Counted from the stretch's first letter, positions 19,248-22,667 are shown. The stretch is 64,000 nt of DNA from a virus (IMGVR_UViG_3300030049_000007); one strand, 5' to 3'. Made by a program: numbers and translations. The notes: a model not told the origin generated them from the sequence alone.

Positions 19248-19655
19248 TTAAAGATTTGGATTAAGTGAAATCTTATAATTCATAGCTTTATCAAATGCTG
19301 TGAAGATAGGTTCCATACAAGCACTCCAGTCAAATTCTTCAGATTGGTCTGTGTATGTATTCCCACTATCTTCATCCATATATTCATAATTAGAACATTC
19401 AATTTGCTCCGCGACAACCCCATCTAACAAAATTAATTTTTCCAAATCATTATTACCTAAAGATCCAACCACGGGAAATCGAAAACTACAATATCGATTC
19501 TTGCCATATTCATCAGGATTATTGAATCTGATATAGCAAAAATCATGATCAATTCTACTAGTCCATTTCCAGGTGTGGCCGTAGAGATTGGCACACAATA
19601 CCTGAAGTGAACCTAATGAAATAATTCTAACTTTATTTACTAACCAAGTGATCAT
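19248..19655 (-). CDS. Hypothetical protein
   Basis: 135-aa ORF. Confidence 0.6.
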   Translation of the reverse strand: MITWLVNKVRIISLGSLQVLCANLYGHTWKWTSRIDHDFCYIRFNNPDEYGKNRYCSFRFPVVGSLGNNDLEKLILLDGVVAEQIECSNYEYMDEDSGNTYTDQSEEFDWSACMEPIFTAFDKAMNYKISLNPNL

Positions 19656-19864
19656 TCTACTTTCCTTCCATCAATTTCAATCACTTTACTTATACCAGTT
19701 TTTTCATCTAATTCAAGTGTTAATTCGAATTCATCACAAGTATGACTAAACATTTTAGTAGCTTCATAAGATAAACCTATTTCAACTCCTTTATCCCATA
19801 AAGAATCATCATTACCATGAACGTAAACCTTAACTATCTTCATTATCCTCTCCATAAGTTTCAT
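19652..19864 (-). CDS. Hypothetical protein
   Basis: ORF track, ATGA overlap. Confidence 0.55.
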   Translation of the reverse strand: MKLMERIMKIVKVYVHGNDDSLWDKGVEIGLSYEATKMFSHTCDEFELTLELDEKTGISKVIEIDGRKVE

Positions 19865-21164: not shown

Positions 21165-21246
21165 TTATACCTCGAACCAATCATCAGCAAGGATATCAGA
21201 AATAGAAGGAACCCAAGGAACACAAGATTCATCAACGGACTTAAGC
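21165..21246 (-). pseudogene. DUF2829/Tad2-like gene, 3' fragment
   Basis: Reads LKSVDESCVPWVPSISDILADDWFEV*, matching the family W.PS..D.LA.DW signature. Confidence 0.85.
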
Positions 21247-22475
21247 TTGACATCCTCCCCACGGCTAAAGCCGGGGGATTCCCTTAATTAGAGTCTTATG
21301 TCCAAGACCGACATTGAGAATATTAATAGCTGCATTCACGTCACGATCATGAAGTGTATGACAACTTTCACATTCCCATTGCCTTACGGATAAGCCGCTT
21401 AGACCTTGATGTTCGCCGATTTCTCCACAAACATTACAAGTGCGACTTGTCCAACTCTCGTTAACCTCTTTAAACTCAATACCAAGCTTAATAGCTTTAT
21501 ATGCAAGCATTGAGCGTAGCTGGGACCATCCAGCATCGAGGACAGATTTAGCCATTTTAGTTTTCGTTAACTTAGATGAAGATACATCTCCAACTATTAC
21601 CAATTTAGAATCTTTTAATATATTGTTGGCAGTTTTATGATTCCAATCTTTTCTAATATTTTTGATTTTAGCATATATTTTAGTTACTTGATGCTTCTTG
21701 TTAGCTCGTTGAGCCATTGCTAATTGTTTTTCATAATATTTAGTAATATTTTCTCTATTATATTTACGACCATCTGAAAGAGTGGCATTTGTAGATAATC
21801 CTAAATCTATACCAATTTCAGAATTACCAGTTTGTTTTTTAAAATCTACTTCAACCGCAAAGTTAATATACCAATGTCCACGAGAATCTTCATTTAAGGA
21901 TATTGTGCGAATATCTTTAGGAATCTCTCTTGTTTTCCAAAATTTAAATGTCTTACCACTAAATGTAAAAAATGCATCTTTATTAAGTTTAATGTTTTGA
22001 TTTGTACATGGAATCCATCCAAGAGATCTCCTTGATCCTTTTGAAGTTCTCCAATTAAGTTTTTGTTTTTTAAATTGATAACGTTTTGTGGTATATTCTT
22101 TACAAATCTGTTGTATAGTGGCTGAGTTTAGATTTAATTCTTTACTAGATCCTTTAGTTAAATTATTTAAATCATAATAATTTAACCATTTAGAATATTT
22201 CTTTAATTGATTGTACGAGGCTTCATTACAGTAATTCCAAACTGTATTTACTGTATTAGCCCATCTTTTTAGATGGTGACTCTTAGAGCCACCATCTTTA
22301 ATTCTGAACTTATAAGTGAGTAACAATATATCCTCTCTTGGCACCGTCCAAATAGGACATTAATGGTAGTGCCTTACCATGATTTATTTTAACACCCTTA
22401 TGAGAGAAAATGATAGTGGGCAATTTATGCCTTGTATCCCCATAGCTAAAGCTAGGGGTTTTACGGCACTATTTG
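21247..22475 (-). mobile_element. IS200/IS605-family TnpB-only (IS1341-like) element
   Basis: Left end follows TTAT and has AAAA-CCCCTAGCTTTAGCTATGGG. Right end is GAAT-CCCCCGGCTTTAGCCGTGGGG-AGGATG-TCAA. No tnpA. Confidence 0.9.
21265..22344 (-). CDS. tnpB: TnpB RNA-guided endonuclease
   Basis: TYKFRI, VWNY, GIDLG, TSRTC-CG / CESC zinc ribbon, HDRDVNAAINI. Confidence 0.93.
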   Translation of the reverse strand: MPREDILLLTYKFRIKDGGSKSHHLKRWANTVNTVWNYCNEASYNQLKKYSKWLNYYDLNNLTKGSSKELNLNSATIQQICKEYTTKRYQFKKQKLNWRTSKGSRRSLGWIPCTNQNIKLNKDAFFTFSGKTFKFWKTREIPKDIRTISLNEDSRGHWYINFAVEVDFKKQTGNSEIGIDLGLSTNATLSDGRKYNRENITKYYEKQLAMAQRANKKHQVTKIYAKIKNIRKDWNHKTANNILKDSKLVIVGDVSSSKLTKTKMAKSVLDAGWSQLRSMLAYKAIKLGIEFKEVNESWTSRTCNVCGEIGEHQGLSGLSVRQWECESCHTLHDRDVNAAINILNVGLGHKTLIKGIPRL

Positions 22476-22667
22476 ATAAGGACGGAATTTTACAATAGTT
22501 CCAGCAGGCATATTTAATGCCTTCTGAGTATTTTCATTAATAGAAATACCATCTGGATATCCTAGTTGATAAAAAGCAAATTGACCAGAACCATTCCAAC
22601 CAGAACGAGACATTCGTTTACCTTCTTTTAATAAACAAAGAGCCGTACTAAACGTCAAACAATCCAT
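22476..22667 (-). pseudogene. DUF2829/Tad2-like gene, 5' fragment
   Basis: TFSTALCLLKEGKRMSRSGWNG...FRPY, truncated by the IS left end. Confidence 0.85.

Follow-up and report, generated by a model that had tools for sequence, protein, structure and literature searches.

A TnpB-only IS200/IS605-type element splits a Tad2-like gene in an uncultured phage and has a matching target in the intact allele of sister phages

Introduction

In IS608, cleavage at the left end falls 3' of the tetranucleotide TTAC, which precedes the left palindrome by ~19 nt; the right end is cleaved after TCAA, 10 nt 3' of the right palindrome (PMC3201880). The two cleavage sites are read by tetranucleotides located just 5' of each palindrome, the left one being AAAG (PMC3201880).

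Homing by TnpB is known for bacterial excision sites and for plasmid copies (PMC11758364 and PMC11870625, as cited in PMC13565253). According to that source, TnpB cuts empty sites and spares occupied ones. In restorative homing (Meers 2023, PMC11758364) and in the plasmid drive by IS605 (Mears 2025, PMC11870625), the guide is templated beyond the right end of the element and the target-adjacent motif (TAM) is the target motif of the transposon. The empty site offers both TAM and target, and the occupied site is immune. The locus analyzed here would share these features. It differs from both systems in that its empty site is the wild-type allele of another phage and not an excision product, and in that any copying would take place between co-infecting viruses.

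Phages also harbor free-standing and intron-borne homing endonucleases, exemplified by SegF and I-TevI of T4-like phages, and nuclease genes have been found at the boundaries of genetic exchange between phages (Barth et al. 2023, PMC10448857). Our locus resembles these systems in showing an occupied/empty polymorphism between closely related phages, a target that exists in the empty allele only, and a haplotype boundary beside the nuclease element. In contrast to the T4-like endonucleases, which recognize DNA as proteins and reside between genes or in a self-splicing intron, the element described here would recognize its target through RNA and destroys the gene in which it resides. Carriage of tnpB by phages has precedents, one being cyanophage A-1(L) (bioRxiv 10.64898/2026.02.14.705889). 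In the literature searched we found no report of TnpB homing between phages or other viruses; TnpB and Tad2 are named together in a review.

Here we describe a TnpB element within a Tad2-like gene of a large phage, together with the uninterrupted allele from sister phages. Homing or drive by this element is plausible.

Results

A TnpB element divides a Tad2-like gene

The DNA analyzed is a stretch of 64,000 nt (the window) from the AT-rich genome of an uncultured phage. The virus record comprises 157,395 bp and has direct repeats at its termini. Between ~19 and 26 kb of the window, every gene lies on the minus strand. A blastn search of INPHARED for close relatives returned chance matches of 39 nt only, and no relative was found when viral contigs were scanned with the neighboring exonuclease protein alone.

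A sequence-only reading of the window had described a Tad2-like gene interrupted by a TnpB element with IS605-type ends, with the 5' and 3' halves of the gene on either side. Both statements are borne out by the protein domains of the element, by its paired end hairpins and by the finding that each gene half matches PF11195 on its own. The features of the locus are listed in Table 1. The 5' part of the gene resembles the beginning of a DUF2829/Tad2 protein and aligns with profile positions 2-62 of 73 (E 9e-10). The 3' part encodes LKSVDES...DDWFEV, lacks a start codon and aligns with positions 46-73 in a six-frame search of the genome (E 4e-7). Both matches are over the Pfam cut-off. The reading frame of the 5' part enters the element, where it meets a stop codon at 22463-22461 after 4 codons, resulting in an ORF (22667..22461) with a 68-aa product, P0001. 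The base at 21246 leaves the 3' part out of frame with the 5' part.

Table 1. Coordinates of the features of the TnpB locus (window positions)
Feature	Position	Strand	Remarks
Inserted IS200/IS605-type element	21247..22475	-	1229 bp; tnpB is the sole gene; absent from the empty-site loci L335-L338
TTAT target tetranucleotide, presumed TAM, at left end	22476..22479	-	Foot of left hairpin 17 nt farther 3'
Left-end subterminal hairpin	22438..22458	-	4+4 bp stem, bulged T, TTTA loop (DNA fold)
Right-end subterminal hairpin	about 21256..21278	-	Followed by GGATGTCAA; element end at 21247
Guide-templating flank, equal to target in intact allele	21222..21246	-	Starts with GCTTAAGTCC
Tad2-like gene, 5' part	22476..22667	-	64 codons, from ATG at 22667 to TAT at 22478-22476; ends ...FRPY
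Tad2-like gene, 3' part	21165..21245	-	26 codons and TAA stop at 21167-21165
Presumed omega-RNA scaffold, 3' part	21247..21342	-	RNAalifold, 35 family members
tnpB ORF	21265..22344	-	359 aa; start from ORF lister, GTG at 22344
Haplotype breakpoint	21204..21205	.	L009 and L334 identical to window to 42 nt past right end

When aligned with intact relatives, the two halves of the Tad2-like gene fit end to end with exactly two residues absent. An intact protein of 92 aa, P0129, was retrieved from the 90% cluster of the best intact match. It consists, residue for residue, of the N-terminal half, the dipeptide LM and the C-terminal half: the 5' part of the window gene is identical to residues 1-64 of P0129 and the 3' part to residues 67-92. 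Since sister phages carry the uninterrupted gene with this product, the split gene is not a chance arrangement. A six-frame search of the 157-kb genome revealed no second Tad2-like gene. The Tad2 gene of the window is a pseudogene, and the genome contains no intact translatable copy.

A profile built from the intact relatives aligned end to end with solved Tad2 proteins, with E values of ~1e-22 for ModTad2 (9EIB) and Tad2 (8V3E), 3e-19 for HgmTad2/AcrIIA7 (8KBI) and 1.6e-15 for SPO1 gp34.65 (8SME). The likeness of the intact allele family to the Tad2 anti-Thoeris sponges includes the GWNG and W...D-LA-DW segments; in contrast, the gene in the window is split after residue 64 and frameshifted. 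Judged by these matches, the intact gene is a member of the Tad2 (PF11195) family with a putative sponge function.

The ends of the element are of the IS608 type

The element is delimited by the empty-site contigs L335-L338, whose flanks align as far as 22475 on one side and resume at 21246 on the other. Read along the coding strand, the left end shows TTAT, followed by 17 nt that end in AAAA, and then the hairpin. The AAAA (22462-22459) occupies the place of the left guide tetranucleotide of IS608. The right hairpin has the same design as the left one (4+4 bp stem, bulged T, TTTA loop), with different, compensating bases in the stem. It encodes the last residues of TnpB and the stop codon, and the element terminates with GTCAA.

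Comparison with relatives of the element supports these boundaries. The motif GGAATCCCC-stem-GGGGAGGA(T/C)GTCAA recurs at dozens of loci in phages and bacteria, encoding relatives that are 40-53% identical. In a multi-copy Sphaerotilus genome the copies diverge exactly after GTCAA, and on the left their likeness ends just before TGAC, which occupies the target position 17 nt 5' of the hairpin. A relative with 81% identity (L332) shares the right hairpin and GTCAA and has a different flank. Two relatives with 64% identity (L339 and L340) have no recognizable left hairpin and hence provide no information on the TAM. IS608-style pairing of the 4 nt before the left hairpin with the target follows an irregular pattern among the family members, in which positions one and four often pair, and is used here as a positional argument only.

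The element thus combines subterminal palindromes at both ends, insertion 3' of TTAT and absence of a target duplication, all features of the IS200/IS605 family. With IS608 and ISDra2 it further shares the bulge in the hairpins, a right end cut after TCAA ~10 nt 3' of the hairpin and the orientation of tnpB, which reads toward the right end. It differs from them in its target, which is TTAT and not TTAC or TTGAT, in its residence in a large phage and in the lack of tnpA, both in the element and in the genome: a search of the 157-kb genome for the Y1 transposase TnpA (PF01797) gave no match, while the controls matched. The element is a non-autonomous, TnpB-only member of the IS200/IS605 family and is present as a single copy in the 157-kb genome. 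Also in contrast to IS608 and ISDra2, its base composition has drifted to that of the phage, with a GC content of 33% (21% at third codon positions); its bacterial relatives are GC-rich. The lineage has therefore long resided in AT-rich genomes.

The leader preceding tnpB (window 22345-22400, minus strand) contains a hairpin, ATGGTA...TACCAT, and the ribosome site AGAGAGGA. Both are conserved with the 81% identical relative (L332:10-70), and the leader may contain the promoter of the element or contribute to its regulation.

The TnpB protein and its putative omega RNA are conserved

The ORF in Table 1 begins with the GTG codon chosen by the ORF lister. The TTG codon at 22326, which is located behind AGAGAGGA and aligns with the ATG of L332, is the likelier start on sequence grounds and would result in a protein of ~353 aa. 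TnpB contains the domains PF07282 (E 5.8e-24) and PF01385 (E 5.9e-11), matches the structures of ISDra2 TnpB (8EXA and 8H1J; E 1.7e-20) and is full length in comparison with 35 homologues. Across 36 homologues, residues D180, E296 and D335 and the four-cysteine zinc finger (CxxC...CxxC) are invariant or nearly so. The canonical RuvC-II position is occupied by an invariant glycine (G252), followed by Asp or Asn, and the invariant E296 is found 44 residues past this position, in the motif N-E-S-(W/F). For clades with a rearranged RuvC-II, an alternative glutamate has been modelled into the active site (PMC10691335). The TnpB of the window has the sequence pattern of these clades and is accordingly of the relocated-glutamate type; TnpBs of this type are predicted from modelling to be active. 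Compared to ISDra2 TnpB, it is shorter (about 353-359 aa) and has Gly-Asp/Asn where the RuvC-II glutamate is expected.

Comparison with the 81% identical relative, which resides at another site, yielded a dS of 1.10, a dN of 0.14 and a dN/dS ratio of 0.13, indicating that tnpB is under purifying selection. Based on its full length, the conserved RuvC and zinc finger residues and this ratio, TnpB is probably active. The C-terminus of the protein, K-G-I-P-R/L-L (window 21265-21285, minus strand), is conserved as well. It is encoded by the right-end hairpin, and this conservation at the protein level reflects the structure of the DNA or RNA.

We next analyzed the 3' end of the element for a conserved RNA structure, aligning the terminal 230 nt of the window element with those of its relatives (35 members in total). 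The consensus fold contains a stem of six pairs (21309-21304 with 21297-21292), with 10-21 double compensatory changes at every pair, as well as the right hairpin. In addition, 21342-21339, in the region of the D335 codon, pair over a long range with 21252-21249 (TGTC). In this fold 95.9% of the alignment cells are paired, as compared to 78.9% in shuffled alignments. The covariation score is 0.495, versus 0.18 for the shuffles and at most 0.14 for slid partners, and changes on both sides were observed at 12 pairs. Binding of the transposase does not require a stem within the coding sequence, which therefore points to an RNA, as expected of omega RNA. From the alignment, a conserved omega-RNA-like structure overlaps the 3' end of tnpB and ends at the right end of the element, with the transcript itself being putative.

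The intact allele of sister phages contains TTAT and a perfect guide match

The sequence-only reading had further proposed that the guide derives from the DNA beyond the right end, and that an empty-site allele should be sought in related phages. The flank was located and begins with GCTTAAGTCCGTTG. It occurs once in the window, at its own place, where it is preceded directly by GTCAA and not by TTAT. The empty-site allele was found as well. The DNA encoding P0129 is present on four contigs (L335-L338), one of them 92 kb in length, which are syntenic with the window and overall 98-99% identical to it (99.4% upstream and 98.2% downstream of the element). In these contigs the gene reads CCTTATCTTAT, followed at the insertion point by GCTTAAGTCCGTTGATGAATCTTGT. 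The second TTAT of this sequence is followed by a stretch that matches the right flank of the element at 25 of 25 positions. Thus, the guide flank is preceded by TTAT in the intact allele and by GTCAA in the occupied allele, the arrangement in which the empty site would be cut and the occupied site spared. We infer from its position and from the family comparisons that TTAT is the TAM of this TnpB.

When contigs from metagenomes and viruses were scanned with the Tad2 alignment, the relatives recovered did not exceed 58% identity, and an empty site was not among them. Distant intact alleles differ from the guide within its first 10 positions. The allele of L004, a 173-kb relative, matches at 18 of 25 nt; in P0002 and P0130, the Ser and Glu of the P0129-type allele are replaced by Thr and Gly. 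Judging by these differences, the distant alleles probably escape the predicted targeting.

The target predicted by the sequence-only reading thus exists in the sister phages. One point is to be corrected: the occupied allele lacks 5 nt (CTTAT) at the joint and is out of frame. Joining TTAT to the base after GTCAA produces ...CCT TAT GCT TAA, a +1 frameshift (...PYA stop). With CTTAT missing, excision of the element cannot restore Tad2. At the insertion point L004 contains CCTTATCTTATG. This sequence and the 5 unaccounted nucleotides predicted an ancestor with two TTATs, and L335-L338 then showed both.

Two differences between the window and the sister contigs were noted at some distance from the element. 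A segment of ~184 nt with an ORF of 63-70 aa (window 19652-19864, minus strand), located between the genes for a 104-aa and a 135-aa protein, is missing from the empty-allele sister L335 (L335:5589-5609). It represents a second presence/absence polymorphism, 1.4 kb from the TnpB element. The 135-aa gene (window 19248-19655, minus strand) is 84% identical between the window and L335-L337, with the surrounding genes at 94-99%, and forms a local hot spot of divergence or exchange.

Occupied alleles share one upstream haplotype and differ downstream

Index entries for the truncated product P0001 cover 66 sample blocks, compared to 7 for the intact P0129; occupied and empty alleles come from different samples. 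Five occupied contigs have a common upstream haplotype, with 0 differences over 3.2 kb, and several are 100% identical over 6.2 kb. Fixed substitutions separate the occupied from the empty haplotype, beginning 246 nt upstream of the element. Given the single upstream haplotype, the higher count of the occupied allele could be the result of a clonal bloom or a sampling effect.

Downstream of the element a different pattern was observed. The window and L006 carry the haplotype of the empty contigs (~0.7% different). L009 and L334 (an independent 954-bp contig from another project) are ~10% divergent from nt 43 past the right end onward. Their changes in the C-terminal half of Tad2 are conservative (I to V, I to V and F to V), as if this divergent stretch had evolved within a working gene. 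A protein search with P0129 detected no intact allele of the divergent 'B' haplotype. Given one break in ~4 kb of comparable flank, the probability that it falls no more than 43 nt from the element is ~1%. The break is located 20-25 nt past the expected cut site, with the donor on the side of the element. This is the trace expected of break-induced recombination following cleavage by TnpB and is suggestive in this respect. It is similar to the exchange boundaries reported for homing endonucleases of phages (PMC10448857). However, the breakpoint is a single event observed in two contigs and could also reflect ordinary phage mosaicism or strain switching by the assembler.

The TnpB family is widely distributed. 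In IMG/VR viral contigs, >500 stretches encode relatives of the window TnpB, indicating that the family is common in phages. Many near-identical copies of the same family are present in a Sphaerotilus metagenome-assembled genome (MAG; L113-L133) and in a proteobacterial MAG (L099-L107), and the family is therefore actively mobile in those bacteria. Tad2-like flanks were found at none of the other loci of the family (162 loci), nor at any of 80 loci retrieved after the viral-contig scan; thus, Tad2 is not a recurrent target. On the contig encoding P0037, a TnpB relative with 63% identity adjoins a SNF2 helicase gene and a gene with an AcrVA2-like domain, another case in this family of proximity to a putative anti-defence gene.

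Discussion

We lean, without strong conviction, towards a course of events in which a host TnpA inserted the element and guide-directed cutting, followed by recombinational copying between co-infecting phages, has acted since. TnpA supplied by the host would have inserted the element 3' of the second TTAT, between ...CCTTATCTTAT and G... of the intact gene. Together with the first base of the element, this insertion would have created a TTATC-TTATC tandem, one unit of which was later lost by slippage. Alternatively, the 5 nt may have been lost at the right joint after insertion behind the first TTAT, which is possible, but no direct repeat is present there that would favor such a loss. Transcription through tnpB would generate an omega RNA with a scaffold ending in GTCAA (21247) and a guide copied from the flank. 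Upon co-infection, TnpB and this RNA would recognize TTAT and the guide match in the intact allele and cut it, sparing the occupied allele, in which TTAT is replaced by GTCAA. Recombinational repair templated by the occupied genome would then copy the element into the cut allele. In this manner the element would persist and spread with no need for a transposase, carrying the loss of Tad2 along. Only tentatively would we extend this model of guide-directed copying to a natural RNA-guided gene drive between co-infecting phages, spreading an irreversible knock-out of Tad2 despite any cost.

An alternative history would be a dead-end insertion, with the host TnpA dropping the element once and TnpB playing no role in its persistence. 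The occupied allele would then be common as a consequence of a strain bloom, or with Tad2 loss being neutral or useful in the current hosts. Such an event would explain why all occupied contigs have one upstream haplotype, in part without any difference over 6.2 kb, and it fits with the origin of empty and occupied alleles from different samples. We nevertheless consider it rather unlikely, given that the element has retained an intact tnpB under purifying selection along with its two ends and the RNA fold, that guide and TTAT find a perfect match in the sister allele, and that the occupied allele exists on two backgrounds which split 43 nt from the element.

We regard it as improbable that TnpB serves mainly as a weapon, cutting intact-tad2 phages during co-infection and lowering their yield with little copying of the element. 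The target logic would be identical to that of homing, and an intron endonuclease acting in this way between phages is cited in PMC13565253. However, with flanks that are 98-99% identical, repair from the occupied genome should be easy, and the recombinant seen in L009 and L334 resembles repair rather than loss. Finally, splicing of the insert from the mRNA as in an IStron, with Tad2 still being made, is hardly credible: the 5' junction follows a U with a G at 21246, and TnpB-bearing IStrons exist (PMC13565253), but the Rfam search gave no group I intron (Intron_gpI) match at E values up to 5 and no family match for the RNA of the element, leading us to drop this reading, and in addition the left non-coding part comprises only ~130 nt before tnpB, splicing at the element ends would cause a frameshift or the loss of two conserved residues, and the ends are typical DNA hairpins of the IS608 type.

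The homing of TnpB, its drive on plasmids and its presence in phages are already known; the value of the present locus is that of a clean natural test case. Homing between co-infecting phages, the reading we favor, can be addressed at this locus with a natural pair of occupied and empty alleles in phages that are 98-99% identical, allowing one to test whether TnpB spreads like the homing endonucleases. The locus offers a candidate TAM, a perfect target of 25 nt, no confounding transposase and a possible recombination scar. The protein, a small TnpB (~353 aa) with relocated glutamate and an apparently T-rich TAM, may also be of interest to those collecting compact nucleases.

In conclusion, a selfish element can remove a counter-defence gene from a phage. 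Host immunity may thus not be the only force shaping the anti-defence repertoires of phages, with intragenomic parasites contributing as well.
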